Source of the DNA: a virus
Lineage: Duplodnaviria > Heunggongvirae > Uroviricota > Caudoviricetes
Length of the DNA: 45,080 nucleotides
Reading direction: 5' to 3' (one strand)
IMG/VR virus record: IMGVR_UViG_3300045988_006100
Span: 1-45,080 of that record
The position numbers and the translations under genes were made by a program. Below, in pieces: positions 3,431-37,691 of the stretch. The notes under the pieces were generated by a model. It was not told the DNA's origin and made no database searches. It saw nothing but the letters and a program-made list of their open reading frames with translations. Position 1 is the first letter of the stretch, and each line of letters opens with the position of its first letter.

Positions 3431-3464
3431 AAGTCACAAAGCCAAATAGTAAACTATTGGCCTG

Positions 3465-4460: not shown

Positions 4461-4500
4461 CGATAAGTGAATAGTATCCTATTATGTTGGGGTGTGCAAG
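4461..4500. promoter_or_regulatory. conserved promoter/operator element (family member A), possibly bidirectional
   Basis: GTGAATAGT-N4-CTATTAT core followed by GGGGTGTGCAAG; reverse complement reads TTGCAC-N17-TACTAT; sits at the divergence point of the left and right arms. Confidence 0.45.
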
Positions 4501-4677: not shown

Positions 4678-4808
4678 CCCTTCCGAAAGCGTCAGCGGAA
4701 CTACACTCAAGTGCCTAATGGCACGCGTTGCGTTCCCTGCCGCTCCGCGGTCGCTTGCGATATCTCACAAGCTCAGTGAAGCTTAGCATATTTTCAAGTA
4801 AAAGTCAA
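4678..4808 (+). repeat. conserved ~130-bp non-coding element, copy 1 (copy 2 at 37458..37587)
   Basis: About 80% identity to 37458..37587, with identical blocks CCCTTCCGAA, GCGTCAGCG, AACTACACTCA, CCGCGGTCGCTTG, TCACAAGCTCAG. Confidence 0.7.
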
Positions 4809-4913
4809 TACCAGTAGCATCTTTTGTATTTTAGTAACTTTGCGTGGTGTTTTGGTTGCTTTTACAAAGTTACCGCCTTATACTTCGATACATATTACAC
4901 AGGAGAGCGCGAG

Positions 4914-5084
4914 ATGACTATCAATGAAGTTGCAGAATTAATCGGCGTCACCCGCCAGACAATCAATAACTGGATTAAGAGTGGAAAGTTTCCTGATTGC
5001 AGCGTTAAAGTAATGGGGCGCCGTTTACCAGGAACATTTGACCGTAATAAAGTTGAAGCGTGGATTAAGGAGAACGTGAAATGA
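4914..5084 (+). CDS. AlpA/excisionase-like HTH DNA-binding protein
   Basis: ATG at 4914 with AGGAGA SD; segment INEVAELIGVTRQTINNWIKSGKFP is a typical HTH. Confidence 0.55.
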   Translation: MTINEVAELIGVTRQTINNWIKSGKFPDCSVKVMGRRLPGTFDRNKVEAWIKENVK

Positions 5085-5371
5085 AAGGTGTAATTTTCCA
5101 CGATAAAGAAAATGACAGTGCTTATATGGTCTATTTAGTGCAAGGTGAGTATGCGTTGTGTTTTAACGTTTCCTGTAAACTGGACTCATATTTGCCGTTT
5201 TGCGTTACAGAAGAATTGCAGTCGATTAGTCTAAGAAGACTCAGCACAATGTCGGCTTCCATCGATGTCTCCGACCACCTATCCTACGTTTATCAGTATT
5301 TCGGTGATGAGATTGTCGCAGATTATTATCGTAAGTACGCACATTTGATGGAATGTCTGGCTAAAAGATAA
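5081..5371 (+). CDS. hypothetical protein
   Basis: 96-aa ORF, ATGA overlap with upstream gene. Confidence 0.45.
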   Translation: MKGVIFHDKENDSAYMVYLVQGEYALCFNVSCKLDSYLPFCVTEELQSISLRRLSTMSASIDVSDHLSYVYQYFGDEIVADYYRKYAHLMECLAKR

Positions 5372-5429
5372 AAGAAAGCCCCGACGCGGTGAACGCCGAG
5401 GCCAAATTATTTGCTGAAGGAAATACAAC

Positions 5430-7697
5430 ATGTCCGATGTAATTTTATCCTACTCGTGGTCACGTCGCAACGCGCGGGCAGAGAAAAAGGATATAAACGT
5501 CAGAACCACACACACGGCAACACTGGATGACCTGAAAGAGTTAATCCAGCCGCTCGATGCTGTTCGTGACGGGATCAACCCGAAGACAGCGCCAGGCTAT
5601 ATTACTGCCGCGTGCGACTCTGCGCACAGCACTGTAAAAGACCCGGAAACCGGTGACTTTAAGCAAGCGCGTAAAGGCTTCTTCTATCGCTGTGACGCGT
5701 CTGTGAGCAAATCGTCGCTGGCGTATCTGGACTTCGACAGTGCAACACCGGAAGAGTACCAGGAAGCGGTGCGCCTGGTTAATCGCAGCCGCCGGGCGAT
5801 GTGTCTCTACACCACGGCATCACATACCGATGAGTCACCGCGCTTTCGCGTCGTCATGCCGCTGAGCCGCCCGGTTGAAGGCGGCGACATCATCCGTGTT
5901 CGTCATGGCTTGCTGGAGCACTTCTTCGAAGGCATGGGCGCTGACCGCAGCGGGTTCACTCTGTCGCAGCCGATGTACCTGCCGCCGGTCGGCGCTACCG
6001 TTATCTGGTCGCGCCGCAACGACCTGATCGACCCGAACGAGTTACTGGAAGGCATCCCAGCCGTTGACGTTAGCAGCGCATCGGATTACCAGATACCGGA
6101 AGAACTGCGCACCGCGTTTACAGACGCGTTTGAAGCACTGGCGTTTGAGTACGGCGGCGTCATGACGCCGCGCGGCCTTAAGATGCCAGCCACACCGGAA
6201 CATGCCGAAAACTACAGCGACCCGACACCGCGCCCGGACGACTTCCTGCTGTGCTTCCCGCGCGAGGGGTATGAAGCGCCAAACGTAACCATGATTCACG
6301 ACACAGACATTACGGCGACAGAAGGCCTGTCACCGAAAGAGGTGTGGAAGTACGCGTGCGATGCGACCGGGCTGCCGTTCAGTGAAGTCGCAGAGGCCAT
6401 CGGTTGGGGGGCGCGTGAATCTGTCTCATGCAGCCTCGACGACCTGGAAGACGACGAGGACTCAGAGGAGGACGAGTTACCGGAGCCGGTAAAGGCTGAT
6501 TTCGTCGTTGAGGGGTACATGCCGTCGGATTGTATCTGGGGTATCGTCGGAGAATCGGGCACGTACAAATCATTCTATACGCTGGGGATGATGTACCTGA
6601 GCGCCGCCGGATACCGGTTTGCAGGGGCTGACACCCAGCGTTGTCACCATTTCTATATCGACGGCGAGGGTGGGGCAGCCACACGTACACGTATTGATGC
6701 GCTCGCGGCTAAATACGGCGAGGAATGTAAAGATTATGTACATGTCATCGATATGGGCGAAGTCGGCAAACTTAAAAGCCTGATTAAGTTAATGCGCGAA
6801 ACTGCTGGCGACGAGCCAATTGGCATGGTTGCGTTCGACACCCTTAACCAGACCCTGGCACTGACGATTGATAAGTTCGACGAGAACAGTTCATCAACAG
6901 CAATCGGCATGGGTAAAGTTATCGCCATTCTGAAAGAAGTACGCGATGCAACTAAAGCCGCAGTAGGCGTTGTCCACCATACGCCGAAGGGTGGAAAGAA
7001 AGCACGCGGCAGTGGAGCGCTGTATGCGGGTGTTGACGTGGAACTGACAATCGAACGTGCAACCGACCGTCAGATAAACGTATATCACTCGAAATTCAAG
7101 CACGGGCCTCAGCAGAAGACGGTTGGCATGGTGCTGGAGTCGGTACAGTTCCGTGAAGCGCCGCCGCCTAAAGAATACCGAGCGGTTGAGTTCCTGGGTA
7201 GCACAGAGGAATACGGCACAATCGTAAACCTGGACCTGCCTGAACCACACAAGGCGCTTGTGTTGATGCCGTGGGGTTTCGAGCCGTTCAAAACTGACGA
7301 GGAGAAAGAGCGGGAAGAAGGGTTGACGAAAGAAGGTAAAGAAAATGTACGTAAAACCGTAGAGAACGCCGTCAACAGTTCGGAGGCCACGATACTCGCG
7401 GCGTTTGAACTGGCGGAAGGAACCTACAACGGCAACGAAGGCATCACAGTCGCCGCGGCGAATAAGCTCGCACAGTCAGACCCCAACGCAAAGGCGTTTA
7501 ACTCCAAAGAAGCCATAGAACGCGGGAAGATTAAGAAAATGGTTGAGGCCGGGTATCTTGTTCCGGGTACTGACGAAAACAATCAGATAATCCCAGGTCG
7601 TTACAGGCTGAACACCAGAATAACTGATAACAAGATTCCAAAGACAATATACGAACCGAATGAAATGTTGACAGTGACAGAGGAGGATTTGGAATGA
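5430..7697 (+). CDS. putative primase-helicase (AEP-like N-terminal domain plus RecA/DnaB-like ATPase)
   Basis: 755 aa; N-terminal YLDFDS...ASH...RFRVV pattern (primase-like); C-terminal Walker A GESGTYKS, Walker B VAFDTL, VVHHTPKGG. Confidence 0.6.
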   Translation: MSDVILSYSWSRRNARAEKKDINVRTTHTATLDDLKELIQPLDAVRDGINPKTAPGYITAACDSAHSTVKDPETGDFKQARKGFFYRCDASVSKSSLAYLDFDSATPEEYQEAVRLVNRSRRAMCLYTTASHTDESPRFRVVMPLSRPVEGGDIIRVRHGLLEHFFEGMGADRSGFTLSQPMYLPPVGATVIWSRRNDLIDPNELLEGIPAVDVSSASDYQIPEELRTAFTDAFEALAFEYGGVMTPRGLKMPATPEHAENYSDPTPRPDDFLLCFPREGYEAPNVTMIHDTDITATEGLSPKEVWKYACDATGLPFSEVAEAIGWGARESVSCSLDDLEDDEDSEEDELPEPVKADFVVEGYMPSDCIWGIVGESGTYKSFYTLGMMYLSAAGYRFAGADTQRCHHFYIDGEGGAATRTRIDALAAKYGEECKDYVHVIDMGEVGKLKSLIKLMRETAGDEPIGMVAFDTLNQTLALTIDKFDENSSSTAIGMGKVIAILKEVRDATKAAVGVVHHTPKGGKKARGSGALYAGVDVELTIERATDRQINVYHSKFKHGPQQKTVGMVLESVQFREAPPPKEYRAVEFLGSTEEYGTIVNLDLPEPHKALVLMPWGFEPFKTDEEKEREEGLTKEGKENVRKTVENAVNSSEATILAAFELAEGTYNGNEGITVAAANKLAQSDPNAKAFNSKEAIERGKIKKMVEAGYLVPGTDENNQIIPGRYRLNTRITDNKIPKTIYEPNEMLTVTEEDLE

Positions 7698-7891
7698 GCG
7701 GTAAATTTAAAGAAGTAAGCGACGAACTGAAAGGTAATAAATACACCAACCACAGAGGCGAAGTAGTAGAAGTTCTTAACGTAGTTCCTTATGGGCGCGG
7801 GTATCATGTTGTGTTCAGTTACACAGAGGCTTACAGCGTGTACTGCGGGTTAGGTAAGTTTCGCAAAAGATACCCGATAAAGGTGCAATAA
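7694..7891 (+). CDS. hypothetical protein
   Basis: 65 aa; ATGA overlap and GAGGAGG SD embedded in upstream gene end. Confidence 0.45.
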   Translation: MSGKFKEVSDELKGNKYTNHRGEVVEVLNVVPYGRGYHVVFSYTEAYSVYCGLGKFRKRYPIKVQ

Positions 7892-7916
7892 AAAGAAAGG
7901 GGCGTCAAGCCCCTTC
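7885..7916 (-). terminator. putative rho-independent terminator
   Basis: Hairpin GGGGC-GTCAA-GCCCC with T-rich tail on - strand; between convergent genes 7694..7891 and 7905..8120. Confidence 0.5.
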
Positions 7917-8120
7917 ACCGAACGCCAGCCACTTAGCGTCTACTTCCAGCACTTCCGCCAGTTTAAACAACGTTGCCGGGCGGACGTCCTGAGTTACACC
8001 GAGAGCCAGCTGGTTAATTGCGCCCTGGGAGACACCGGCCAGGACAGCCAGACGGCGCTGGGAGATGCCGAGTTCTTTACGGCGTTGCTCTACACGGATG
8101 CCTAGTTCGGATGGTTGCAT
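7905..8120 (-). CDS. XRE-family (Cro/CI-type) HTH transcriptional regulator
   Basis: 71 aa; ELGISQRRLAVLAGVSQGAINQL is a classic HTH_XRE segment; AAGGAG SD; sole leftward gene inside the rightward block. Confidence 0.7.
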   Translation of the reverse strand: MQPSELGIRVEQRRKELGISQRRLAVLAGVSQGAINQLALGVTQDVRPATLFKLAEVLEVDAKWLAFGEGA

Positions 8121-8140
8121 GTCAATTACTCCTTAGTCAG

Positions 8141-8170
8141 TTGATGTGTGAATAGTACCATATTAATTAT
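8141..8170. promoter_or_regulatory. operator/promoter-like element (family member G) upstream of XRE gene
   Basis: GTGAATAGTACCATATTA core; lies between XRE start and rightward promoter D. Confidence 0.4.
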
Positions 8171-8184
8171 TTTAGAAAAGCCCA

Positions 8185-8213
8185 TTGACAAGTGAATAGT
8201 TCGCTATTATAGT
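8185..8213 (+). promoter_or_regulatory. sigma70-like promoter (family member D)
   Basis: TTGACA-17 nt-TATAGT with internal GAATAG/CTATT inverted repeat; 29 nt upstream of gene 8242. Confidence 0.6.
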
Positions 8214-8241
8214 TAGCCCATACCAAACGAGAGGTGAAGAT

Positions 8242-8469
8242 ATGAACATAATCACTGGAGCTATAACTAAATGTTTCCGGGTAATTTTCGGTGAACCGCA
8301 AGAAGTATGCACTAACCATAAATTTGTACTTTCTTGCGTAGTCGGGGACGAGTTTGACGGATTCGATAAACTGGTGGTTTGCGACCATTGCGGGCAAGAA
8401 GCTATCCAACACTCAAACGGTAAATTTGAATTAATAGACGATAGCCTTACAGAAGGCGACGGCGAGTAA
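8242..8469 (+). CDS. hypothetical Cys-rich protein
   Basis: 75 aa; good SD GAGAGGTGA; its 3' end contains inverted-repeat copy 2. Confidence 0.5.
   Translation: MNIITGAITKCFRVIFGEPQEVCTNHKFVLSCVVGDEFDGFDKLVVCDHCGQEAIQHSNGKFELIDDSLTEGDGE
8381..8440. repeat. 60-bp perfect inverted repeat, copy 2 (partner 3304..3363)
   Basis: Exact reverse-complement identity to 3304..3363; here encodes the C-terminal ...DHCGQEAIQHSNGKFELID of gene 8242..8469. Confidence 0.9.
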
Positions 8470-8491
8470 CCTAAATAAACAGGAGAAACAA

Positions 8492-8992
8492 ATGTTAGAA
8501 CAATTCTTAAAATTACTGGAACGTTTCGTAGTTGCACATGAACTGATTGCTGCGAACAGTGCGAAACAGTCAGCACAAGTTGCAGCGCCGTTAGAAGTAG
8601 AGACGGTAGTGTATACCAAAGAAGCGGTAGCTGAGTGCGAAAAAGAAGCAACAAAAGAAATCCCTGTTGAAGGTGAAGACATCGTTGACGCTAAACCAGC
8701 AGAAGAAGAGAAGCCGAAACGCAAGCCGCGTAAAGCTAAAGTAGAGGAGCCGACTCCAGAACCAGAAGAAGAGAAAGAAGAGGTCGATTACCAGTCTCTT
8801 CGTGACCAGATTCAGGCTATCGACGATGCAATTAACGAAGGTCCTAGCGATGCTGCGTGCGACGATTCCGATGAACTGCTGGAGGAGTTCACCGGTAAGA
8901 AAATGAAGATTGCCGCGATTAAAGACGAAGACCTGGCTGAATACCTGAAACGCCTGACGGCGATTAAGAACAAGTATTTCGAAGAAGAATAA
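8492..8992 (+). CDS. hypothetical highly acidic protein
   Basis: 166 aa, strongly E/D-rich with a lysine-rich patch; AGGAGA SD. Confidence 0.5.
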   Translation: MLEQFLKLLERFVVAHELIAANSAKQSAQVAAPLEVETVVYTKEAVAECEKEATKEIPVEGEDIVDAKPAEEEKPKRKPRKAKVEEPTPEPEEEKEEVDYQSLRDQIQAIDDAINEGPSDAACDDSDELLEEFTGKKMKIAAIKDEDLAEYLKRLTAIKNKYFEEE

Positions 8993-9289
8993 TTTATCTG
9001 GCGGCCTCCGGGCCGCTTTAACAGAGGGTCGTAATATGATTTACCAACTCTACCGAGGTATTGACTGACGGGATAACACAGAGGCGTTGTGGCTGTTGCG
9101 TGCGCCGTCCGGCGCGCACCAGATGGAAGAGATGGCCTACCTCGGCAAAGTACCGAAGCCGAAAGATATAGGCCGTCACCTGTCGCAGATTAAGCGCACG
9201 ACATTCGTTAAAAGTGACTTTTATGTCTTCGAGTCGATGCATTGTGACCACAAGACACGACATTTAATTGACCAGTGGGAGAACAGGGT

Positions 9290-9637
9290 ATGACCGATAA
9301 ATGGTGGCTTAATCTGCGTAGTGGCGACAAGGTTTACACAGTCGGCGACCGCAGAAAGAGCAGCGGCGTAGCTACTGTGTTACAAAACGGCAAAAAGTAC
9401 ATTCACATTGTGCATGAAGCTCGTGCGCTCCGCGTGAATAAATCGTCTGGCAGGCTTGAGGATTACCCGAAAACATTAATATATAAAAGTGAAAAGCATC
9501 ACATGGACGCTGTTGACGTAAGACGTCAGTTCGCAGGAATGTTGCAACAGTTAAGCGACTTACATCGCGATGATTCTTTCATTCCTACAGAAGAACAGTT
9601 ACAGGCATTAAACTTGTATTTGGAGAGTTTACGATGA
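9290..9637 (+). CDS. hypothetical protein
   Basis: ATG at 9290 (ORF open from 9275); ATGA overlap with downstream nuclease gene. Confidence 0.4.
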   Translation: MTDKWWLNLRSGDKVYTVGDRRKSSGVATVLQNGKKYIHIVHEARALRVNKSSGRLEDYPKTLIYKSEKHHMDAVDVRRQFAGMLQQLSDLHRDDSFIPTEEQLQALNLYLESLR

Positions 9638-10875
9638 TTCTTAAAGAACGCGGCGGCAATAACGATGTACATGCCTTACTGTCGCCGTCAGGGGCTAAAA
9701 AGTGGCTAAGTTGCGCGGCATCACTGGCCTGTGAAAAAGATATCCCTAACACGTCAGGTAAAGCCGCTGTATTAGGCACGGCAATGCACACCATAGCTGA
9801 GGTCCATCTCAACGCTTATATTCGCGGAACTGCGCTGCCGTTAGAGCGTGAAGTCGGTGCTTACGTGCTGGATGAAGGCAAAGGCCAGATTAAGGCACTA
9901 ATCAGCCCGATGAAAGGCGCGGTACTGATTACGGCGGACATGATTGAGCAGGTGCGCAAGTACACCGACTACTGCAAAGCGATTATAGACGTAGCGACTT
10001 ACGCCAAGCTGGAAATGCGTGTTAATCTTACTGAGGTATTGCATCCGGGGTATGAAGGCGTTGAGACGTTCGGAACCGCTGACCTCGTTGCTGTCCAGGA
10101 ACTGGCAAACACCGACGAGCACATGCTCATTATCGGCGACCTGAAAACCGGGCGGCATCGCGTCGAAGCGAAAGAAAACAAGCAGCTTATGCTTTACGCT
10201 CTCGGTGTTTATCGTCGACTCAAGAGACGTTATAGCATAACAACCGTTCGTCTGGTCATCTTCCAGCCTTACGCTGGGGGTGCGACAGAGTGGGACATCT
10301 CGGTTGAAGGACTGGAACTGTTCGCTAAGTTCGCACAGAAACGCGCGCTGTTAGCGCTTGATGCTTATTTCCGCGGCAAGAAGGACCTGAAAGCGTCAGA
10401 CTTTAAGCCGTCGGTAGATGGTTGCCAGTGGTGCCGGTTCTCTGAACAATGCGCCGCGCGTACAAAAACCGTTAACTCTGTACTGGCTGAAGAACTGGAG
10501 GACGACTTTGCACTTGAGCTTACGCCAGAGCAACTCGTAGCTGAGTATGAGAAGTTGCCGTTGTTGCGCCAGCACATCGACAAGGTTGAGAAAGCTATGG
10601 CTGCTGCGTTACATTCCGGTAAGAAAGTGCCGGGGTATAAACTGGTTGAAGGACGCCCGGGTAATCGTGCGTGGAAAGATACCGATGCAGTATTCGAGAA
10701 GTACGGTACTATGCTGCAAAAGGTAGTTCTTATGACACCGACCGAAGCGGTTAAAATTGTACCGGAAGAAGAACTGAAAGACTTCATTACCCGTAAGCCC
10801 GGTGCGCCATGCGTCGCAACGGCGGATGACAAACGTCCTGAGTGGAATCAAGTTACAGAGGAGGATTTAGAATGA
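9634..10875 (+). CDS. PD-(D/E)XK nuclease, Cas4/RecB-like exonuclease
   Basis: 413 aa; DLV...IIGDLKTG nuclease core and C-terminal Cys cluster CQWCRFSEQC typical of Cas4-like phage exonucleases. Confidence 0.65.
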   Translation: MILKERGGNNDVHALLSPSGAKKWLSCAASLACEKDIPNTSGKAAVLGTAMHTIAEVHLNAYIRGTALPLEREVGAYVLDEGKGQIKALISPMKGAVLITADMIEQVRKYTDYCKAIIDVATYAKLEMRVNLTEVLHPGYEGVETFGTADLVAVQELANTDEHMLIIGDLKTGRHRVEAKENKQLMLYALGVYRRLKRRYSITTVRLVIFQPYAGGATEWDISVEGLELFAKFAQKRALLALDAYFRGKKDLKASDFKPSVDGCQWCRFSEQCAARTKTVNSVLAEELEDDFALELTPEQLVAEYEKLPLLRQHIDKVEKAMAAALHSGKKVPGYKLVEGRPGNRAWKDTDAVFEKYGTMLQKVVLMTPTEAVKIVPEEELKDFITRKPGAPCVATADDKRPEWNQVTEEDLE

Positions 10876-11075
10876 TTCAAGTAAATGAAATGCCGACTGA
10901 TAAAGATTTTTTGATGGTATGGCGCTGGGATGGGTATCTACACTCGGAATCGTTCACGTTCTTGAACGGTACCATGATGCGATACTACCCTGTAGAGGAT
11001 GAGTTCGAACCGGCCAATATGCTTAATTTCGAGAACATAATCCCTATTGCAAAATTTTATTTGACACATGAATAG
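10872..11075 (+). CDS. hypothetical protein
   Basis: ATG at 10872 with GAGGAGG SD inside upstream gene end (same 21-nt cassette as at 7677..7697). Confidence 0.45.
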   Translation: MIQVNEMPTDKDFLMVWRWDGYLHSESFTFLNGTMMRYYPVEDEFEPANMLNFENIIPIAKFYLTHE

Positions 11076-11088
11076 TTAGCTATTATAG
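11060..11088 (+). promoter_or_regulatory. sigma70-like promoter (family member E)
   Basis: TTGACA-17 nt-TATAGT, same core as D; 60 nt upstream of SSB-like gene. Confidence 0.55.
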
Positions 11089-11147
11089 TTCTAATCACTG
11101 GCCGGGCAGATCCCGGAGTAAACTGAAACTGAAAAGCGAGAAATCAA

Positions 11148-11777
11148 ATGGGACTGAAATTAAATCTGCGTAAAGTAAACACTGCCTGGGTTAACGTATT
11201 CGAACGCGAAAAAGACCGTGAAAACGACGATGGATCAATCACTAAAGGTCAGTACAGCGCAACGATTATCCTGCCGTCTGACCATGCTCAAATCCATGCA
11301 CTCTACGACACCGTTTACACTGTAGTTGAAGAAGCGTTAGGCGCAGCCGCTGCCGAGAAATGGATGAAGTCCAACTACGGTGAAGGTAAGCACATGGATA
11401 AATGCGCGATTAAAGACATTGCCGAGCGCGACAATCCGTTTGAAGACTTCCCGGAAGGCTTCTACTTCAAAGCGAAGGCACAGAAACAGCCGCTGATTGT
11501 AACCTCTAAAAAAGGTGAGACTCAGGTAGAGCAGGACTTCAACGTAGACGGCGAACAGATTGAAGGTGAACAGGTTTACAGCGGATGCTTAGCTAACGTA
11601 AGCGCTGAAATCTGGTTCAGCCAGAAATACAAAGTCCTCGGCGTTAACCTGCTGGCGATTAAATACGTTGGCGAAGGCAAAGCGTTCGGCGGTTCTAAAG
11701 TTGCGGCCAGCGTCAACGACCTGGAAGACGACGAAGAAGATGAAGCACCGCGCCGCGAACGTCGTCGCCGTGGTTAA
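11148..11777 (+). CDS. putative ssDNA-binding protein (DUF2815/T7 gp2.5-like)
   Basis: 209 aa with acidic C-terminal tail DLEDDEEDE; position between nuclease and polymerase; assignment from memory of family. Confidence 0.45.
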   Translation: MGLKLNLRKVNTAWVNVFEREKDRENDDGSITKGQYSATIILPSDHAQIHALYDTVYTVVEEALGAAAAEKWMKSNYGEGKHMDKCAIKDIAERDNPFEDFPEGFYFKAKAQKQPLIVTSKKGETQVEQDFNVDGEQIEGEQVYSGCLANVSAEIWFSQKYKVLGVNLLAIKYVGEGKAFGGSKVAASVNDLEDDEEDEAPRRERRRRG

Positions 11778-11797
11778 TATCTGAATCTGTTTAACTA

Positions 11798-11820
11798 AGG
11801 CCCTTCATTGGGCCTTTTTA
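11798..11820 (+). terminator. rho-independent terminator
   Basis: AGGCCC-TTCATT-GGGCCT hairpin followed by TTTTT. Confidence 0.7.
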
Positions 11821-11836
11821 CTAAGGGTCGAAAATA

Positions 11837-12115
11837 ATGGCAGCGGAACTTAAGAGATACAGACGCATCACATACTGCAAATTTTGTAAGGCAGAAGGTA
11901 AAAAAGTTAGAGCAATTTGGATGACTAAATACCCTCCAGCTTACGGTGTACGAGACTGGTATAAACACTATGCATGCGAGGAGCATAAACATTTAATAGA
12001 AGACACAGACCCAGACCGGACTTGGGCAGAAATCATAGAACGCGGTAAAAACAAGAAACAAGATCGCGACGACCATCTCACAGAAGCAGACTATCAGACG
12101 TGGTACAGACTATGA
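11837..12115 (+). CDS. hypothetical zinc-binding protein
   Basis: 92 aa; CKFCK...CEEH pattern. Confidence 0.45.
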   Translation: MAAELKRYRRITYCKFCKAEGKKVRAIWMTKYPPAYGVRDWYKHYACEEHKHLIEDTDPDRTWAEIIERGKNKKQDRDDHLTEADYQTWYRL

Positions 12116-14295
12116 ACACATTGCTTTACTTAGACTTTGAAACCTACAGCGACATCGATTTGAAGAAAGTAGGTTCCTACGCTTACGCTGAACACCCGTC
12201 AACCGAAGTGCTTATCTGTACCTATGCTTTTGACGAAGAGCCTGTGCAGGTATGGGATTGCACCGACGGCAGCGACATGCCGGGGGATTTGCACCGCGCA
12301 CTGCGCCGCCTTGTTAAGCCCAACAGCCGCATCAAGATTGTGTGGCACAACGGTGGACTTTTCGATCGCCTAATCATGAAACACTGCTGGGGCTTTGATA
12401 TTCCGGTAAGTAACACCATTGATACTATGATTTGGGCGTTCCGTCACGCGCTGCCGGGTTCTCTTGATGCGCTGTGCGAAGTGCTGGGCGTGTCTGCAGA
12501 CAACGCGAAAGATAAACGCGGCAAGGCTCTGATTAAGCGTTTCTCTAAACCGACGCCGAAGAACTACAAAATCCGCCGCTACACCGCAGAAACTCACCCT
12601 GACGAGTGGGCGATGTTCATCAGGTACGCCGTGAGCGACATCACTGCGATGCGGGAAGTGTTCCATAAGCTACCGCGTTGGGGTAACTCGGAGTTTGAGG
12701 ACCGTGTACTGGAACTGGACCAGTTAATCAACGACCGCGGGTTTAGGGTTGACGTTGCACTTGCGGAAGCTGCGATTGAGGCCGTAGAGAAGCACAAGGC
12801 CCAGCTACAGGAAGAAGCCCAACGCAAATACGGCGGCTCGCTTACTGGAAAGGATTTTCTACCAATTCTGCGTGAACTGGCACCTGCGCATCGAATCCAC
12901 AACGCGCAGAAGTCGACGCTGAATGACCTGTTGGCAGATGATGATTTACCGGACGACGCCCGGATGATTATCGAAATGCGCCTCGGGGCCGCGTCAACAG
13001 CGTCCACGAAATATAACCCGCTGCTGTTAGGCCGCTCGTCGGACGACCGACGCCGCGGTTGTATCCAGTACGGTGGGGCAAAGCGTACGTTACGGTTCGC
13101 GGGTAAAGGCTTCCAGCCACAGAACCTGGCACGTGGGTACTATCACGATGATGAACTGGATAAAGGCATTTCAGCGTTACTTAAGGGCCGGGCGCACCGC
13201 CGATTTGACGTAGCCAAGCTGACGGCATCTACCGTTCGTAGCTGCATTATACCGGAAGCTGGGCATAAGTTTGTCGTCGCCGATTACTCTAACGTTGAGG
13301 GTCGCGGGCTTGCGTGGCTGGCAGGCGAAGAAACCGCGCTAGATACGTTCCGCTCCGGACTGGATATTTACTGCGTAACAGCAGGTAAGATGTTTGGCAT
13401 GGAGCCGGATTACATTAAGAAAGAACGTAAAGACTTACGCCAGATTGGTAAAGCCTGCGAATTGGGCCTCGGATACGCGGGCGGTGTCGGTGCTTTCGTT
13501 CAGTTCGCTAAAAATCTCGGCCTTGACCTGGTTGATATGGCTAAAACAATGGACGGTACTTTCCCGGACCATATATGGGCCGCTACTGCACGCGGGTATG
13601 AATGGGCGCGTATTCAGGAAGCAAAGAGACCGCCGCGTCCCGGTGAAAAGGATGACCGACCATCATATATTCTTGGTAAGAAAGTGTGGCGTACCTGTGA
13701 CGCTATCAAGCGCATGTGGCGGGAGTCCCACCCGGAAACAGTAGCTTTCTGGCGTGATATTGAAGACGCAGCTATGGCAGCAATCCGTAATCCGGGGAAA
13801 GAGTTCACAGCTGGCCCTCGCGGGGTTAAGTTTTCTCGCAACGTAGAAACAGACAACAACGGCAACAAAGTCGCTGGTTGGTGGTTGCGCATGACGTTGC
13901 CGTCAGGTCGCGTTATGTCATACCCGGGCGTCGGGTTGAGCGTGTCAAAAGAGACAGACGAAGACGGAAAAGTTTCTACTAACGTGCGCATCAAGTATCA
14001 GGGTGAAAATCAGTTAACCAGGCAGTGGGGCTTCCAGTACACCTACTCCGGTAAACTGGTGGAAAACTGCACTCAGGCATTGTGCCGTGATTTGCTGGCT
14101 AATGCCCTGCTGAACGTAGAAGCAAACGGCTACCCGATTGTACTTCACGTACACGATGAGATTATCTGCGAGACACCAGATTCACCGGAATACAATGTAG
14201 CAGAGCTTGAGCGGTTGATGTGCGAATTGCCGGAATGGGCGGAGGGGTTCCCTCTTGTAGCTGAAGGTGCGGAGATGAAGCGATATGCCAAGTAA
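12112..14295 (+). CDS. DNA polymerase, family A, with 3'-5' exonuclease domain
   Basis: Exo motif LDFETYSD; Pol A motifs DYSNVEGR (A), RQIGKACELGLGYAGG (B), HVHDEII (C); ATG at 12112 overlaps upstream stop (ORF open from GTG 12100). Confidence 0.85.
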   Translation: MNTLLYLDFETYSDIDLKKVGSYAYAEHPSTEVLICTYAFDEEPVQVWDCTDGSDMPGDLHRALRRLVKPNSRIKIVWHNGGLFDRLIMKHCWGFDIPVSNTIDTMIWAFRHALPGSLDALCEVLGVSADNAKDKRGKALIKRFSKPTPKNYKIRRYTAETHPDEWAMFIRYAVSDITAMREVFHKLPRWGNSEFEDRVLELDQLINDRGFRVDVALAEAAIEAVEKHKAQLQEEAQRKYGGSLTGKDFLPILRELAPAHRIHNAQKSTLNDLLADDDLPDDARMIIEMRLGAASTASTKYNPLLLGRSSDDRRRGCIQYGGAKRTLRFAGKGFQPQNLARGYYHDDELDKGISALLKGRAHRRFDVAKLTASTVRSCIIPEAGHKFVVADYSNVEGRGLAWLAGEETALDTFRSGLDIYCVTAGKMFGMEPDYIKKERKDLRQIGKACELGLGYAGGVGAFVQFAKNLGLDLVDMAKTMDGTFPDHIWAATARGYEWARIQEAKRPPRPGEKDDRPSYILGKKVWRTCDAIKRMWRESHPETVAFWRDIEDAAMAAIRNPGKEFTAGPRGVKFSRNVETDNNGNKVAGWWLRMTLPSGRVMSYPGVGLSVSKETDEDGKVSTNVRIKYQGENQLTRQWGFQYTYSGKLVENCTQALCRDLLANALLNVEANGYPIVLHVHDEIICETPDSPEYNVAELERLMCELPEWAEGFPLVAEGAEMKRYAK

Positions 14296-14497
14296 ACTGA
14301 TTATTGCGGTACTGGCGGGATTCGCCGCCGGTGTCTACTGTCACGAGGGTCAATACGGCATGATGGTTGCCGTATTAGGTATGTTAGTAACAATTTATCT
14401 GTGGGTGCTGGAATGAAAATTTACTGGTTCTACGAAGAAGACCGCCGGATCTGTCCGCGCTGTGGTATTGCGCATACGAAACGTGAGGGGTGTGTGG

Positions 14498-14785
14498 ATG
14501 AGTACGCCTGAGGGCAAAATACAGAAATACGCAAAAGACCGATTCGAGGCCATTGGTGGCCTCGTTCGTAAACTTTCCTACGAAGGACGTTCCGGCGCCC
14601 CTGACCTGCTGGTAATTCTCCCCGGCGGCGTCATCTGGTTCGTCGAGATAAAGAAAGACGAAAGCACGAAGCCGGATCCACACCAGTTACGGGAGCACGA
14701 GCGGATGCGTAAGCGTGGTGCTAATGTTTTTGTCGTTGGTTCGTTTAAACAGGTTGACGCCCTAATAGCGAACTATTATAGTTAG
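14498..14785 (+). CDS. VRR-NUC domain nuclease
   Basis: GRSGAPDLLVIL...WFVEIK pattern typical of VRR-NUC; ATG at 14498 with GAGGGG SD. Confidence 0.65.
   Translation: MSTPEGKIQKYAKDRFEAIGGLVRKLSYEGRSGAPDLLVILPGGVIWFVEIKKDESTKPDPHQLREHERMRKRGANVFVVGSFKQVDALIANYYS
14754..14782 (+). promoter_or_regulatory. sigma70-like promoter (family member F)
   Basis: TTGACG-17 nt-TATAGT overlapping the VRR-NUC 3' end. Confidence 0.5.
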
Positions 14786-14815
14786 TCCTACACCAACAAT
14801 ATAAGGAATTGAGAA

Positions 14816-15007
14816 ATGAAACACGAATATGACCGCAAACCAGCACGTGACATCGTACCTGGCGACATGATTTTCAACGTTAAGACCCGTCGGCCTGTTG
14901 CCGTTGATACGGTGTACGTCGAGTCGAACGGTAAACTGGTTATCGAAGATGTAACCGGTAACGTTACGGCGTTCGGGCGTAAAGAGTTAGTTCTGGTGGC
15001 AAAATGA
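14816..15007 (+). CDS. hypothetical protein
   Basis: 63 aa; SD GGAATTGAG; ATGA overlap with methyltransferase gene. Confidence 0.45.
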   Translation: MKHEYDRKPARDIVPGDMIFNVKTRRPVAVDTVYVESNGKLVIEDVTGNVTAFGRKELVLVAK

Positions 15008-15933
15008 ACTATTACAACGAATGGGATAAAGGCGCAGCCGCGTGGCTGCGTGAATTAATAAAACAGGGTCACATACCTTTTGGAGTTGTAGATGAAAGAA
15101 GCATTACTGAAGTTAAGCCAGAAGACCTCGACGGATTCACCCAGTGTCATTTTTTCGCTGGTATCGGCGGCTGGCCTCTCGCGCTCAGACTTGCGGGAGT
15201 TCCGGAAGATACGCCTCTCTGGACGGGAAGCCCGCCTTGCCAACCGTTTAGCACGGCAGGAAAGCAACTCGGACAGTTCGACCCGAGACACCTCGCGCCC
15301 GTATTCCTTGACCTCATCAGCGAGTGCCACCCTCCAGTCCTCTTTGGGGAACAGGTTGCGCCAGCAATTGCAAAATCGTGGATGTGCGATTTACAAACTC
15401 ACCTGGAAGGAGAAGACTACGCCGTCGGGTTTGCCGTACTCCCAGCTTGTAGCGTCGGCGCTCCGCACAAAAGAGAACGACTTTTCTTCGGCGCGCATAG
15501 ATTGGCCCACGCCAGCAGTATCACTGATAACAAACGACGTGAACATGCGCAGCACAGACGGCAGGACGAAACCGAACAAACTGGGGTGGGCCGCCGCGAT
15601 GACGGCATGGGCGACGCCGACCGCGAACGATTACAGAGGGAGCGGAGAGACAGTGATTCGCAAGGACGGAAAGGACCGGACTTTCGACAGGCTGGACTAC
15701 TCAACGGAGCAGGGACTGAAAATATCGCGACCAATCCGCATCACGGCTTCTGGTCAGAGGCAGACTGGCTCGGATGCCGGGATGGAAAATTCAGGCCAGT
15801 TGAACCCGGCACATTCCCGCTGGCTGATGGGATACCCGCCAGAGTGGGACGATTGCGCGGTTACGGCAATGCCATCGTCCCGCAAGTAGCTGCTGAATTT
15901 ATAAAGGCATTCATGGGGGCGGTAAATGAGTAA
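15004..15933 (+). CDS. DNA (cytosine-5)-methyltransferase; central motifs lie in the +1 frame
   Basis: Frame A: FFAGIGG (I), SPPCQPFS (IV), LFGEQV (VI), GAPHKRERLFF (VIII), GYGNAIVPQVA (X). The +1 frame between ~15494 and ~15855 carries WPTP/WATPTANDYRGSGE and LNPAHSRWLMGYPPEW (IX-like). Confidence 0.7.
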   Translation: MNYYNEWDKGAAAWLRELIKQGHIPFGVVDERSITEVKPEDLDGFTQCHFFAGIGGWPLALRLAGVPEDTPLWTGSPPCQPFSTAGKQLGQFDPRHLAPVFLDLISECHPPVLFGEQVAPAIAKSWMCDLQTHLEGEDYAVGFAVLPACSVGAPHKRERLFFGAHRLAHASSITDNKRREHAQHRRQDETEQTGVGRRDDGMGDADRERLQRERRDSDSQGRKGPDFRQAGLLNGAGTENIATNPHHGFWSEADWLGCRDGKFRPVEPGTFPLADGIPARVGRLRGYGNAIVPQVAAEFIKAFMGAVNE

Positions 15934-17350
15934 GTTTCAAAGGCGTGAGTACCAAAAGCTCATGACTTCGTTCATGCTGCGGCACCATCGCTGCAACATA
16001 TGGGCAAGCATGGGCGCTGGGAAGACTGGCAGCGTACTGTGGGCATTAAACCGACTGTTCCGAAACGGCCAACTTAATGATGACGACCGCGTGTTAATCC
16101 TCGCCCCGCTGCGGGTTGCGTCTGGTACGTGGCCTGCAGAGCAAGAGAAATGGCAATTCCCATGTCTGCGTGTTGTAGATGCGACTGGTTCAGAGAAGCG
16201 CCGCATCGCGGCGCTGGAGTCAGATGCTAACGTGGTTTGCACGAACTATGAGGTTATCGAGTGGCTGATTGACTACTACGGCAAAGACGACTGGCCTTTT
16301 ACGGTTATCGTTGCAGATGAAAGCACGAAGCTTAAATCATTCCGCAGCCGTTCAGGTGGTAGCAAGCGTGCAAAGGCGCTTAGTAAAGTGGCTTTCGGAA
16401 GGGTTAAGCGTTTTATTAACCTGACTGGTACACCGTCACCAAACGGCCTCAAGGATTTGTGGGGCCAGAACTGGTTTATCGACGCTGGCGAGCGCCTAGG
16501 TTCGTCGTATACAGCATTCACCGACCGCTGGTTTAATTCGGTACAGAAAGGAAAATCTGCGATGGCACGTGAATATCACGCCCGCCCTGGTGCAGATAAC
16601 GAGATTCACCAGAAGATGAAGGACATCAGTCTGACGATTGACGCCGCCGAGTGGTTCGGTTGTGAAGCGCCTGTTATCGTGCCGGTTGAAATCGACCTGC
16701 CGAAGAAAGCACGTCAGGCGTACATCGATATGGAGGAGAAGCTATTCGCGGAACTGGAAAGCGGAGAAGTTGAAGCGGCTAACGCTGCGGCGAAGACGTC
16801 GAAGTGTCTGCAGATTGCCTCCGGTGCCGTGTATGTTTCGGGCCCTGACGGCGAAGCAACCAAAGACTGGGAGAAAGTGCACGACACGAAACTGGACGCA
16901 CTGGAGTCCATTGTGGAAGAGTTACAGGGCGCGCCGTTACTGGTGGCCTATCAGTTCAAGCACGAACTGGAGCGCATCCTTAAGCGGTTCCCGCAGGCCC
17001 AGGCATTTGCCAAAGGTGCGAAGGGTAATAAGCAGATGGAAGCGTGGAACCGTGGGGAAATCGAGATTTTATGCGTGCATCCTGCGTCAGCCGGGCATGG
17101 TTTGAATTTACAGGACGGGGGTCATCATCTGGCGTTCATCTCGCAAGGCTGGAACCTTGAGCACTATTTGCAGGTTGTTGAGCGTATAGGCCCGGTCCGC
17201 CAGAAACAAGCGGGGCACGAGCGACCGGTGTTCCTCTATCACATCGTCGCTAAAGACACGCTGGACGAGGTTGTTACCACACGTACTGACGAGAAGAAAT
17301 CGGTACAGGAAGAGTTGCTTAATTACATGAAGAGACGAGGTAAGAAATGA
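15926..17350 (+). CDS. SNF2-family helicase
   Basis: Walker A MGAGKTGS, DExx box IVADEST, LTGTP motif, helicase-C HGLNLQDGGH. Confidence 0.8.
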   Translation: MSKFQRREYQKLMTSFMLRHHRCNIWASMGAGKTGSVLWALNRLFRNGQLNDDDRVLILAPLRVASGTWPAEQEKWQFPCLRVVDATGSEKRRIAALESDANVVCTNYEVIEWLIDYYGKDDWPFTVIVADESTKLKSFRSRSGGSKRAKALSKVAFGRVKRFINLTGTPSPNGLKDLWGQNWFIDAGERLGSSYTAFTDRWFNSVQKGKSAMAREYHARPGADNEIHQKMKDISLTIDAAEWFGCEAPVIVPVEIDLPKKARQAYIDMEEKLFAELESGEVEAANAAAKTSKCLQIASGAVYVSGPDGEATKDWEKVHDTKLDALESIVEELQGAPLLVAYQFKHELERILKRFPQAQAFAKGAKGNKQMEAWNRGEIEILCVHPASAGHGLNLQDGGHHLAFISQGWNLEHYLQVVERIGPVRQKQAGHERPVFLYHIVAKDTLDEVVTTRTDEKKSVQEELLNYMKRRGKK

Positions 17351-17862
17351 TGGATGGCGAGGAGTTACTACTTAAGGCGCATCTGCTGTCACGAGGTTTT
17401 GACGCGGACCGTTTACGTGTAGTCTTAGGCCCTGGAGTAGCTACGTTTTACCTGTGGGGCTTTGACGGTAAGCTACGCGGGTACCAGCATTACAAGCCGC
17501 ATGCTGAAAAGAACTGTAAAAACCCTAAAGACGCGCGGTACTTTACCCGAACAACAAGGCCGTGTTTATGGGGACTTGAGTATTTGCCAAGTAGCGGGGT
17601 GGTATTTGTTACCGAAAGCATATTTAAAGCTGCTGCTTTGATGAATTGCGGGTTTAATGCAGTTAGCGCATTGGGGTCGAACATACCAGCTGACTTACGG
17701 CAGCAAATGTCACTTTTGCCGTATGAATGGGTGTGCGCCGGTGACAGTGATAAAGCTGGATTAAAGTTCAGCAAAACATTCACCAGAGGATTTGTATCTA
17801 ACGACCTTGATGAACTTTGTGAAGAAGAAATAACGTATCTTGCGAGGAAATTTACCAGATGA
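17347..17862 (+). CDS. Toprim-domain protein (primase-like)
   Basis: VFVTESIFKAAAL...CAGDSDKAG resembles a Toprim fold. Confidence 0.5.
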   Translation: MMDGEELLLKAHLLSRGFDADRLRVVLGPGVATFYLWGFDGKLRGYQHYKPHAEKNCKNPKDARYFTRTTRPCLWGLEYLPSSGVVFVTESIFKAAALMNCGFNAVSALGSNIPADLRQQMSLLPYEWVCAGDSDKAGLKFSKTFTRGFVSNDLDELCEEEITYLARKFTR

Positions 17863-28098: not shown

Positions 28099-28139
28099 CT
28101 TGCACACCCTGATATAATAGCGTACTATTCACTTACACC
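28099..28139. promoter_or_regulatory. conserved promoter/operator element (family member B), bidirectional
   Basis: TTGCAC-17 nt-TACTAT on + strand with internal TATAAT; reverse complement carries GTGAATAGT-N4-CTATTAT core; between divergent genes 27992 (-) and 28171 (+). Confidence 0.55.
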
Positions 28140-28170: not shown

Positions 28171-28362
28171 ATGACCGGTATCGCTATGTTCTTTTTAATT
28201 ATTGTTGTAGGCGTTTATTTTATCCCGTTTTTTGTGGCCCATATGCGAAACCATAAAGCAAAGCTAGCGATATTCATGGCTAACTTATTTCTCGGGTGGG
28301 TTCTGTTGCCGTGGGTATTCATTTTAATCTGGGCTTGTAACTCGAACGTGAAAGAGAAGTAG
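28171..28362 (+). CDS. superinfection immunity-like two-TM membrane protein
   Basis: 63 aa; YFIPFFVAHMRNHKAKLAIFMANLFLGWVLLPWVFILIWA resembles the Imm_superinfect family pattern; AGGAG SD. Confidence 0.55.
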   Translation: MTGIAMFFLIIVVGVYFIPFFVAHMRNHKAKLAIFMANLFLGWVLLPWVFILIWACNSNVKEK

Positions 28363-28400
28363 GCTACTATAAGACAAATCCTAAACACGAGGAAGTAAGC

Positions 28401-29531
28401 ATGGCCCGGAAGAAAATAACCGACGAACAGTTACAGGAAGAATTGAACGCCGGAATGAAGAATGTAGACATCGCCCGTAAATACGGCATCTCAGACCGCG
28501 TAATTCGTATCCGTAAAGCGAAGCTGGCTAAGAAAGGTGTAGGTCACGGACGTGATGTTAGCCACCTTGTCCCGGACGGCTATAAGATTAAAGGAACGTC
28601 GTCACTGGTGGATGAGTTCGGCAACACTAAGTTGCAATGGGTTAAGACCGACACTGACGCCGAACGTCAGGTTGAATTGATGAAAGCCGTGATCGAAGGC
28701 ATGAAATCGGAGATTACGCCCGTTGCACCTGTTAAAGCCGTTCGTGCCAAACGGGACGATAAGCTGCTCAATCTTTACACTGTATCCGATTTCCATCTCG
28801 GTATGCTGGCCTGGGCCGACGAGAGCGGCGACGACTGGGACATGAAGATTGCGGAAGACCTGTTCTCTCGTTGGTTCGATGCAGCATTCCAGAAAGCACC
28901 GGATGCCGGTACTGGGGTTATCAATCTTCTTGGCGACTTAGCGCACTTCGATAGTCTTGATGCCGTTACGCCCGCAAGCGGTCATGTCCTTGACGCTGAC
29001 ACGCGCTATCAGAAACTGGTCCGTTACATGATTCGTATGGTCCGCCGTGTCGTTGATATGGCGTTGGTTAAGCATAAAAATGTTCGCTTGCTTATCGTGC
29101 AAGGGAATCACGACGAATCGGGTATGATTTGGTTGGCTGAGATGTTCAGTACGCTGTACGACAATGAGCCGCGCGTGTTCGTCGATACGTCGCCGGATGT
29201 TTACAAGATGGTGCAACACGGCAAAACGACGCTGTTCTTCCATCACGGGCATAAAGCACGATTCGACGCTATCGAACCGGTTATGATTGCCAAGTTCCGT
29301 AAAGCGTTCGGCGAGAGTGTTTACAGCTACGCCCACGTAGGCCATCTGCACCACCAGAAGATTGTAGAAAGCCGTAACATGATTGTTGAGCAACACCGCA
29401 CCTTAGCGGCTAAAGACGCCTACGCCTCTCGCGGCGGATGGATGTCGGGCCGCAGTGCAAATGTAATTACTTATAGCGCCGAATATGGCGAGGTCGCACG
29501 TTTAACTATTTCACCGGAGATGCTGGGATGA
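28401..29531 (+). CDS. metallophosphoesterase with N-terminal HTH-like segment
   Basis: Calcineurin-like motifs DFHLG, GDLAHFD, QGNHDE, FFHHGH, GHLHH; N-terminal DIARKYGISDRVIRI. Confidence 0.7.
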   Translation: MARKKITDEQLQEELNAGMKNVDIARKYGISDRVIRIRKAKLAKKGVGHGRDVSHLVPDGYKIKGTSSLVDEFGNTKLQWVKTDTDAERQVELMKAVIEGMKSEITPVAPVKAVRAKRDDKLLNLYTVSDFHLGMLAWADESGDDWDMKIAEDLFSRWFDAAFQKAPDAGTGVINLLGDLAHFDSLDAVTPASGHVLDADTRYQKLVRYMIRMVRRVVDMALVKHKNVRLLIVQGNHDESGMIWLAEMFSTLYDNEPRVFVDTSPDVYKMVQHGKTTLFFHHGHKARFDAIEPVMIAKFRKAFGESVYSYAHVGHLHHQKIVESRNMIVEQHRTLAAKDAYASRGGWMSGRSANVITYSAEYGEVARLTISPEMLG

Positions 29532-30016
29532 AAGATATTGTAATTTTCGATTTAGACGGGACATTGGCCGACGGTACCCATCGCTTACACCTGTTACCAA
29601 AAGATAACTACGGAGAAACGTGGGCGTGGAAGCCATTTAACATAGCCTGCAAAGATGACGCTCCGATATACGACAATATCCATTTGTGTAGCGTACTGTG
29701 GCATTCCGGACTTACTATAATTATCCTTACCGGGCGAAGTGATGACGCTGAGGAGGAGACTCGCGAATGGTTACGAGAGAATAACGTTAGGTTTGACACG
29801 CTAATCATGCGCAGCAAACACGACAACAGAAAAGACATCGTAATTAAAGAAGAGGTGTTGCGTGCTTTCGGACTGGAAAGAATCTTGTGTGCGTTCGACG
29901 ACTCTCCAGCGGTAATAAAGCATTTCCGTGACCTCGGCATAACCGCACACGCAGTTGCCGAATACGACTGTAACGGGAACTCTACACACTTAAAACCACA
30001 CGGGAGCGATAAATAA
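29528..30016 (+). CDS. HAD-superfamily phosphatase
   Basis: Motif I FDLDGTL, motif II ILTGR, motif IV FDDSP. Confidence 0.6.
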   Translation: MKDIVIFDLDGTLADGTHRLHLLPKDNYGETWAWKPFNIACKDDAPIYDNIHLCSVLWHSGLTIIILTGRSDDAEEETREWLRENNVRFDTLIMRSKHDNRKDIVIKEEVLRAFGLERILCAFDDSPAVIKHFRDLGITAHAVAEYDCNGNSTHLKPHGSDK

Positions 30017-30570
30017 TGGCTAAGGTAATTATTCTTAATGGCCCTGCGGGTTGCGGGAAAGACACGCTTGCTATGGCGCTGGTAGAAATGGGCTTTGCGA
30101 AAGGAACTACCAGTTTCAAGAATCCAATGTTCAATATTGCTTTGGCAGCGTTAGGCCAGGATGCTTACCACGAATTTCTCGACGGCTACGACGACCGGGC
30201 GCGGAAAGAAAAACCCGAGGGTTTTCTTAATGGGTTGTCCCGCCGCCAGTTAATGATTGCCATTTCTGAGCAATTCATTAAACCGGTATTCGGCGATGAT
30301 TATTTCGGTAAGTATCTTGCTGAAAACTTGCCTGACGGCGACGAAGTTTTTGTAGTGTCCGATGGTGGATTCGCCAGTGAAGTTGCCCCTATCGTCGCCG
30401 CGGGGCATGACGTGCGAATCGTCCGCCTCCATCGTGACGGCTATACGTTCATCTGCGATAGCCGTGGCTATCTGTACGATGTTAGTGGTGTAAAAGATTA
30501 CGACACCTACATCATACCGGGTGACGTTAAATCGAACGTTATAGACATTGCTTTAAAATTAGGTTTGTAA
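30016..30570 (+). CDS. P-loop kinase, deoxynucleoside monophosphate kinase-like
   Basis: P-loop ILNGPAGCGKDT plus RRQLMIAISEQF segment resembling T4 gp1-type dNMP kinase. Confidence 0.55.
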   Translation: MAKVIILNGPAGCGKDTLAMALVEMGFAKGTTSFKNPMFNIALAALGQDAYHEFLDGYDDRARKEKPEGFLNGLSRRQLMIAISEQFIKPVFGDDYFGKYLAENLPDGDEVFVVSDGGFASEVAPIVAAGHDVRIVRLHRDGYTFICDSRGYLYDVSGVKDYDTYIIPGDVKSNVIDIALKLGL

Positions 30571-37457: not shown

Positions 37458-37587
37458 CCCTTCCGAACGCGTCAGCGTAACTACACTCAGGACTTACGTC
37501 CCGCTCCGTTACCTGCCCGCGCCGCGGTCGCTTGTTCATACTTCACAAGCTCAGGTGGAGCTTATCATATTTTTAGTGAAAAGTCAA
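37458..37587 (+). repeat. conserved ~130-bp non-coding element, copy 2
   Basis: About 80% identical to 4678..4808; hairpin GGAC-TTAC-GTCC replaces GTGCC-TAAT-GGCAC of copy 1. Confidence 0.7.
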
Positions 37588-37652
37588 CTATTCGAATAGT
37601 TTATTCCAACATTTACAATTGAGCGGAATAACTGGAATAAGTAAATAAATAG

Positions 37653-37691
37653 TTTGCACACCCCAATATAATAGGGTACTATTCAGTTAAC
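37653..37691. promoter_or_regulatory. conserved promoter/operator element (family member C), bidirectional
   Basis: TTGCAC-17 nt-TACTAT with internal TATAAT on + strand; reverse complement carries GAATAGT-N4-CTATTAT core; upstream of gene 37710. Confidence 0.55.

Follow-up and report, generated by a model that had tools for sequence, protein, structure and literature searches.

AATAG-N4-CTATT as a putative operator built into host-type promoters of a Kagunavirus, and its probable recognition by a 434 Cro-like XRE protein

The 121-nt spacer to the right of a gene for a small XRE-type protein in a viral sequence of 45,080 nt (IMG/VR record IMGVR_UViG_3300045988_006100; this whole stretch is called the window below) contains two copies, termed G and D, of an inverted repeat that recurs at five further places, A, B, C, E and F. 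This arrangement raises the question of whether the repeat is a promoter, an operator or both, and of which protein recognizes it. A first-pass annotation of the sequence had misplaced the XRE gene between G and D, and had suggested that XRE is a single regulator acting at a dispersed operator. The evidence presented here makes it probable that the elements are host sigma-70 promoters with a built-in 14-bp operator, AATAG-N4-CTATT, for which the 434-Cro-like XRE protein is the most likely ligand. The type of circuit is that of an ordinary repressor and operator, and what is unusual is its wide dispersal over a virulent genome.

Bases 5000-12000 of the window match 473 phage records, the best of which are Escherichia phage vB_EcoS-phiEc3 and its relatives (~94% identity), and by this similarity the window is a Kagunavirus (Guernseyvirinae), that is, a virulent, lytic E. 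coli phage, in an orientation that is approximately the reverse complement of the 45.3-kb phiEc3 genome. Its genes form alternating blocks: small genes and lysis genes up to ~4436 (- strand), HTH_17 and helicase-primase at 4914-7891 (+), the XRE gene at 7905-8120 (-, 71 aa), replication genes at 8242-17862 (+), tail genes at 27992-18025 (-), immunity and phosphoesterase genes from 28144 or 28171 to 30570 (+), capsid and tail genes at 37334-30599 (-), a lone ORF at 37710-37913 (+), and head and terminase genes (-). The first gene of the rightward replication operon (8242-8469) has no Pfam match. A lambdoid immunity region was not recognized, the 71-aa XRE protein being HTH only and neither an integrase nor a cI with a cleavable C-terminal domain occurring among the 80 annotated genes of phiEc3. 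Hairpins of the form GGCCC...GGGCC are shared at 11797, 18001 and 30575, at or just past the ends of gene blocks; those at 18001 and 30575 are at convergent junctions, the element recurs in Jerseyvirus and Cornellvirus, and the hairpins are likely to be two-way terminators.

The core of the repeat had been described as GAATAGT-N4-CTATTAT. This literal pattern has no match in the window even with two mismatches and was re-defined with a spacing of N3, whereupon five exact copies appear, at 4469 (+), 8194 (+), 11070 (+), 28114 (-) and 37668 (-), together with copies that carry two mismatches each at G (8150) and F (14763). The family is thus present at all seven places where it had been noticed, far above chance, and the spacing had been wrong: with up to three mismatches the N3 core has 18 matches in the window against 2.96 expected. 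The symmetric part of the core is the 14-bp dyad AATAG-N4-CTATT, which has seven exact copies and, with at most one mismatch, 13 copies in the window, compared with 1.01 expected and five in the most productive shuffle. When all word pairs of the type 5-Nx-5 were scanned, this dyad was among the top repeated patterns both in the window and in Jerseyvirus Ent1, and the motif search that had been proposed across the genome and related phages gave an excess over chance here and the family in Kagunavirus and Jerseyvirus. Members that had been overlooked include a further exact copy of the dyad (3445-3458) and two copies with one mismatch (647-660 and 37579-37592). The central N4 differs from copy to copy and between orthologues, and the half-sites are conserved.

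Three of the elements, D, E and F, are, as had been noted, promoters in front of + strand replication blocks, and their sequence is close to the sigma-70 consensus (10-11/12, N17 spacer). TTGAC(A/G)-N17-TATAGT occurs exactly three times, at these sites, against 0.00 expected, and a match of 10/12 or better to the sigma-70 consensus is reached at eight sites of the window, of which four coincide with the dyad, D, E and F among them. In each of the three the dyad fills the spacer between -35 and -10, with its center at about -18.5. The dyad of D (AATAGTTCGCTATT, 8195-8208, +) lies in the spacer of TTGACA (8185-8190)-N17-TATAGT (8208-8213), a promoter predicted from its sequence to drive the replication block that starts at 8242, and is conserved in ~29 distinct Kagunavirus contexts in which the central 4 nt vary. 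That of E (AATAGTTAGCTATT, 11071-11084, +) lies in the spacer of TTGACA (11061)-N17-TATAGT (11084-11089), ahead of the ssDNA-binding gene at 11148, and that of F (AATAGCGAACTATT, 14764-14777, +) in the spacer of TTGACG (14754)-N17-TATAGT (14777-14782), ahead of 14816 and the methyltransferase/SNF2 block; the ORF upstream of F extends into this element at its 3' end. A stem-loop (CCGGGCAG.TCCCGG, ~11100-11118) in the leader that connects promoter E to the ssDNA-binding gene is kept, with a varying loop, in Kagunavirus and Jerseyvirus.

The promoter character of these sites has been recognized before, and the polymerase to which they were assigned was a different one. In Kagunavirus fBC-Eco01 the same seven-copy motif, tgAATAGTa-ccTATTat-T, was obtained as seven PHIRE hits and ascribed to a phage RNA polymerase (PMC9825357), and seven PHIRE promoters were also reported for Kagunavirus Golestan (PMC7203180); both papers treat the motif as promoters, with no operator or regulator reading, and literature searches found no operator or repressor reading of it elsewhere. 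The assignment to a phage-encoded polymerase is contradicted by the lack of a polymerase gene, since none is among the 80 annotated genes of phiEc3 and the long ORFs of the window are all explained by other functions, and the sigma-70 match of D, E and F likewise speaks against it, so that this interpretation is extremely improbable.

The remaining elements place the same dyad differently. Sites A, B and C share ~40 nt, and the 'GGGTGTGCAAG extension' by which they had been set apart is the -35 of a promoter-like sequence of the opposite strand, TTGCAC-N17-TACTAT, which occurs exactly three times, at these sites, against 0.01 expected. These candidate promoters match the consensus at 7/12 and were missed by the consensus scan; they are exact in three copies, are conserved in relatives, and are followed within 20-35 nt by a ribosome-binding site and start codon (4436 on the - strand, 28171 and 37710 on the + strand) of divergent genes. 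The dyad of A (AATAGTATCCTATT, 4470-4483, -) belongs to TTGCAC (4499-4494)-N17-TACTAT (4476-4471), which faces a small - strand ORF (start 4436) and the leftward small-gene block and is present in 27 distinct Kagunavirus contexts; that of B (AATAGCGTACTATT, 28116-28129, +) to TTGCAC (28100)-N17-TACTAT (28123-28128), upstream of the gene for superinfection immunity, which starts at 28144 or 28171; and that of C (AATAGGGTACTATT, 37670-37683, +) to TTGCAC (37654)-N17-TACTAT (37677-37682), upstream of the ORF at 37710-37913. At G the imperfect dyad (AATAGTACCATATT, 8151-8164, -), one half-site of which is ATATT, overlaps the extended -10 TGgTACTAT (TACTAT at 8157-8152), precedes the XRE start (8120) by ~25 nt and is invariant in 25 distinct Kagunavirus contexts; judged from this layout, XRE is probably transcribed from, and autoregulated at, G. 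In all four cases the dyad overlaps the -10 of the candidate opposite-strand promoter, with its center at about -12.5.

A, B and C had been taken for bidirectional promoters at points of divergent transcription. The promoter-like sequences of the other strand hold, and the layout can be explained without bidirectionality: TATTAT is present on the forward sides, but their -35 is only TTnnnn, and the consensus scan is blank there. Each forward operon has a separate promoter candidate: the helicase operon has TTGCTT-N17-TATACT (4857-4885), the capsid genes have TTGACT-N17-TAAGCT, and the tail genes have TGtTAGAAT (28093-28085, -), immediately ahead of an int-alpA leader. In many relatives an additional A-type member lies within a one-directional leftward operon and has a degraded forward -10 (TATTCT), and Jerseyvirus Ent1, which has no annotated divergent gene at this place, has a degenerate equivalent of C. 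On these grounds, A, B, C and G are read as promoters of the other strand, although the B site of Jerseyvirus looks symmetric. The int-alpA leader is an Rfam match (RF02996, 28017-28081, -; 36.6 bits compared with a gathering score of 35.8), an Rfam search of the A and C spacers gave no match, and the stretch TAGAATAATTTTGCGsCTAG of the tail-operon leader is also conserved in Cornellvirus VSiA and SE1. The module TTGACT-N17-TAAGCT, with TG upstream, has two copies, at 4780-4808 (-) and 37559-37587 (-), which face the leftward early/lysis block and the capsid block, respectively. Downstream of each copy, where the transcript is predicted to begin, is a conserved hairpin, AAGCTyCAC(C)TGAGCTT.

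The members that had been missed extend the family beyond these two arrangements. The eighth exact dyad (AATAGTAAACTATT, 3445-3458, no strand assigned) is inside the leftward operon, has no obvious promoter, adjoins a terminator-like hairpin and is conserved, with a varying center, in 13 distinct relatives. One of the two one-mismatch dyads (AATAGTCAACTAGT on the + strand; 647-660, -) covers the -35 of TTGACT-N17-TATATT (655-627, -), a promoter-like site (10/12) upstream of the terminase block, and is conserved in Kagunavirus and Jerseyvirus. The other (37579-37592, -), a weak candidate for membership, covers the -35 of TTGACT (37587-37582)-N17-TAAGCT (37564-37559, with TG) and precedes the capsid/tail block. 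Directly abutting the TTGACT of this capsid-side promoter is a perfect 16-bp palindrome (AACTATTCGAATAGTT, 37586-37601) whose half-sites are in the reverse order relative to the operator. As located on the sequence, the predicted operators thus overlap the promoter core at the -35, in the spacer or at the -10, and in occupying three registers the dyad behaves as a module separate from the promoter. Among orthologues, moreover, the register of the dyad relative to the promoter shifts by 1-3 bp with the half-sites intact and N4 variable.

In a rival explanation there is no regulator, the promoters are merely duplicated, and the dyad is symmetric only because bidirectional promoters have -10-like hexamers on each strand. 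At A, B, C and G, and at the Jerseyvirus B site, the half-sites do coincide with such hexamers (TACTAT, TATTAT) on the two strands, and an earlier description of the motif simply as 'promoters' (PMC9825357) agrees with it. At D, E and F, on the other hand, the dyad is in the spacer and there is no opposite-strand gene. Sigma-70 reads no sequence between the -35 and the -10. AATAG and CTATT nevertheless persist in these three paralogues and across two genera, with N4 variable: centers of D in orthologues are TTCG, TTAG, TTCA, TTTG, CTCG and CTAG, those of F are CGAA, CGAG, CGGA, CTAG, CAGA and CACA, and TTGACA and AATAG are 4 or 5 nt apart. Kagunavirus spacers are more than 90% conserved overall, so that the footprint within this genus is supportive and only weakly discriminating. 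Positions G5 and C10 of the dyad fall outside any -10 hexamer, the exact dyad at 3445 has no promoter, and unrelated prophages, described below, have the same dyad as sites in their cI/cro spacers. An origin of the symmetry without a regulator is therefore quite unlikely.

If the dyad is an operator, XRE is the best candidate to bind it. The protein belongs to Pfam HTH_3 (PF01381, Cro/C1-type; E 2.3e-12, residues 11-65), and among proteins of solved structure phage 434 Cro is the closest to it (phmmer, E 5.4e-7). The AlphaFold2 model of XRE (five helices, pLDDT 80) is matched by Foldseek to 434 Cro (TM 0.73-0.79), the 434 repressor N-domain, SinR-N, C.AhdI and P22 c2, and structural alignments with 434 Cro chains show 38-41% identity. 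The XRE gene also adjoins the putative operators G and D, the first of which lies over TGgTACTAT. Operators of phage 434 are 14 bp long, with conserved outer half-sites of 4-5 bp, and by analogy AATAG-N4-CTATT has 434 operator geometry. The resemblance to the 434 Cro/repressor system (OR1-3, OL1-3) includes the single-domain HTH_3 protein of 71 aa, the length of 434 Cro, the 14-bp dyad with a free center, the overlap of the sites with promoter cores, and a regulator gene next to two sites, one of them over its own promoter. Unlike 434, the Kagunavirus has no lysogeny module, its half-site is AATAG rather than ACAAG, and its sites extend beyond an OR/OL pair across at least eight promoters of a 45-kb virulent genome.

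To compare conservation within Guernseyvirinae, 78 IMG/VR loci around XRE homologues were retrieved. XRE is at least 96% identical among Kagunavirus-like loci (L005-L037) and down to ~78% identical in wider relatives, and the dyad family is confined, among the 78 loci, to Kagunavirus-like and Jerseyvirus-like ones. AATAG-N4-CTATT is the top repeated dyad in both genera; Cornellvirus SE1 and VSiA are without this family and carry a related type of site, ATTAG-N4-sTAAT / ATATTA-N6-TAATAT, at ~3 per genome. The form ATATTA-N6-TAATAT is found at equivalent divergent spacers, at 7553, 14748 and 37322 in VSiA (L004) and at 3782 and 25392 in SE1 (L003). The recognition helices are SQGAINQ in Kagunavirus, SQSLITH in Jerseyvirus and TQSAISH in Cornellvirus, and a simple co-variation of helix and site was rejected for the subfamily, in that the Jerseyvirus helix resembles that of Cornellvirus and its motif that of Kagunavirus. 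A search of 5.8 billion proteins for XRE homologues returned only contigs of Guernseyvirinae type with the same helix and set of motifs, and the loci of distant homologues (L052, L056, L069-71) were uninformative on the motif. Cornellvirus has, in addition, direct repeats (GTGAATAGTTAT) in a G-rich repeat region adjoining the helicase-primase, which may be its replication origin.

The mismatch between helix and motif in Jerseyvirus leaves room for another ligand, which could be the HTH_17 protein (Xis/AlpA-like; 4914-5084, +), another phage protein or an E. coli/Salmonella host factor. XRE had been called the only repressor-like gene, which overlooks HTH_17, and the distribution of the latter fits the motif: its identity is 79% between Kagunavirus and Jerseyvirus, which have the motif in common despite different XRE helices, neither of the two Cornellvirus-type genomes checked (SE1 and VSiA), both of which lack the dyad family, contains it, and tblastn against all phage records finds it only in Kaguna/Jersey-type phages. 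A Kagunavirus transcriptome places one HTH gene among only four early genes, ambiguously as to XRE or HTH_17 (PMC12645636). Nevertheless, a Kagunavirus-like contig without HTH_17 (L030) still has six exact dyads, and among solved structures HTH_17 comes closest to that of a monomeric excisionase (4j2n, E 0.08), a poor fit to a two-fold dyad. In the independent prophage lineage considered next, the dyad is tied to HTH_3/Cro proteins of the QG.I.Q type, with no HTH_17 match. HTH_17 was ruled down as the first-choice binder on these three points. We know of no host-factor consensus that matches the dyad, and recognition by a protein other than XRE is considered unlikely. The HTH_17 gene, which precedes the helicase-primase, is 64-100% identical within Kagunavirus; in L030 (~12000-13600) it is replaced by a small Cys-rich ORF and an ORF of ~150 aa.

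Support for XRE comes from outside the Guernseyvirinae. IMG/VR and a bacterial genome collection were scanned for two exact dyads 15-45 bp apart. Most matches were AT-rich or a fixed 18-mer; the AT-rich pairs are probably due to chance, and the contigs L087/089/091/096 and L106/111/119 contain the 18-mer repeat ACTAATAGATAACTATT, with no similar HTH nearby, and were set aside as a different element. This 18-mer, which contains the dyad, occurs in 2-7 copies in unrelated viral contigs (48% GC), and no HTH of the QG.I.Q type is near it. Exact dyad pairs were also found in GC-rich (64-67%) prophage contigs, where 0.0 were expected: L090, L105/L109, L123, L138 (Sphingomonas montanisoli), L204 (Rhizorhabdus histidinilytica) and L240. 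In these Sphingomonad prophages the pair occupies the spacer that separates a cI-like gene (HTH_3 and Peptidase_S24) from a cro-like gene (Pfam YdaS/Cro) in divergent orientation. A second pair, at a distance of 1.1-1.6 kb, occurs in L090, L105/L109 and L138, and in L090 and L105 it surrounds a TTGACG -35. Their recognition helices are TQGAISQ/TQGAIQQ in cI and TQGNIWQ in cro, compared with SQGAINQ in XRE, and the N-domain of the prophage cI is 47% identical to XRE. In ORF translations of all 120 bacterial loci found by the scan the pattern QG.I.Q has five matches, all five within ~130 bp of dyads.

The prophage regions share with the Kagunavirus the identical dyad with a variable center, a near-identical helix (TQGAISQ and SQGAINQ) and a putative operator that forms the spacer/-10 of a TTGACG promoter, as at D, E and F. 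They differ from it in having a repressor with Peptidase_S24 and a cro-like partner, in having only one or two local pairs of putative operators, and in a host and genome unrelated to Kagunavirus. The earlier suggestion of one XRE regulator at a dispersed operator thereby gains independent comparative support, the same dyad and a similar recognition helix being found in unrelated cI/cro spacers, and it is accepted here mainly because the Q-G-x-I-x-Q helix is linked to AATAG-N4-CTATT outside Guernseyvirinae.

We infer XRE binding, dimerization, repression and timing along the following lines. XRE would be made from the promoter at G, and an XRE dimer would bind the perfect operators of members A to F, where it would block RNA polymerase either in the spacer or at the -10 and so damp the early and middle transcription units. 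On its own imperfect site, G, XRE would be weaker, giving negative autoregulation. A simple model of early shut-off leaves unexplained the one-mismatch dyads over two promoters of late structural genes. A more far-reaching proposal, which we regard as doubtful, is that Guernseyvirinae retained no more of a lambdoid cI/Cro switch than its DNA-binding half and multiplied the operator into nearly all early and middle promoters, so that one 71-aa protein governs the whole transcription program, with weaker operator copies at its own and at some late promoters. If this were true, XRE might shut down superinfecting relatives, the operator being identical in Kagunavirus and Jerseyvirus, and might also allow a reversible repressed carrier state.

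A precedent for dispersed control by one phage regulator is the C1 protein of phage P1, whose many operators are scattered at the promoters of separate transcription units. P1 is temperate, and C1 is a large, unrelated protein with asymmetric 17-bp sites, whereas the regulator proposed here is a 71-aa protein of a virulent phage with a symmetric 14-bp site. If confirmed, the present interpretation would provide a transcription logic for Kagunavirus and Jerseyvirus, genera with hundreds of sequenced isolates that are much used in phage therapy and biocontrol, and would correct the published misassignment of the sites to a phage RNA polymerase. It would also offer synthetic biology a portable repressor/operator pair consisting of a 71-aa protein, a 14-bp site and strong sigma-70 promoters. 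Safety assessments regularly flag 'repressor' genes in virulent phages; XRE looks like a regulator of the lytic cycle and not like a lysogeny gene.

The most frequent exact 10-mer of the window is another sequence, GTTGCCGTTG/CAACGGCAAC, with nine copies (4512, 7427, 10554, 13857, 14897, 24225, 25438, 32780 and 33651) that are mostly intragenic; TTGCCGTTGT, which is related to this decamer, is also repeated in Jerseyvirus Ent1.
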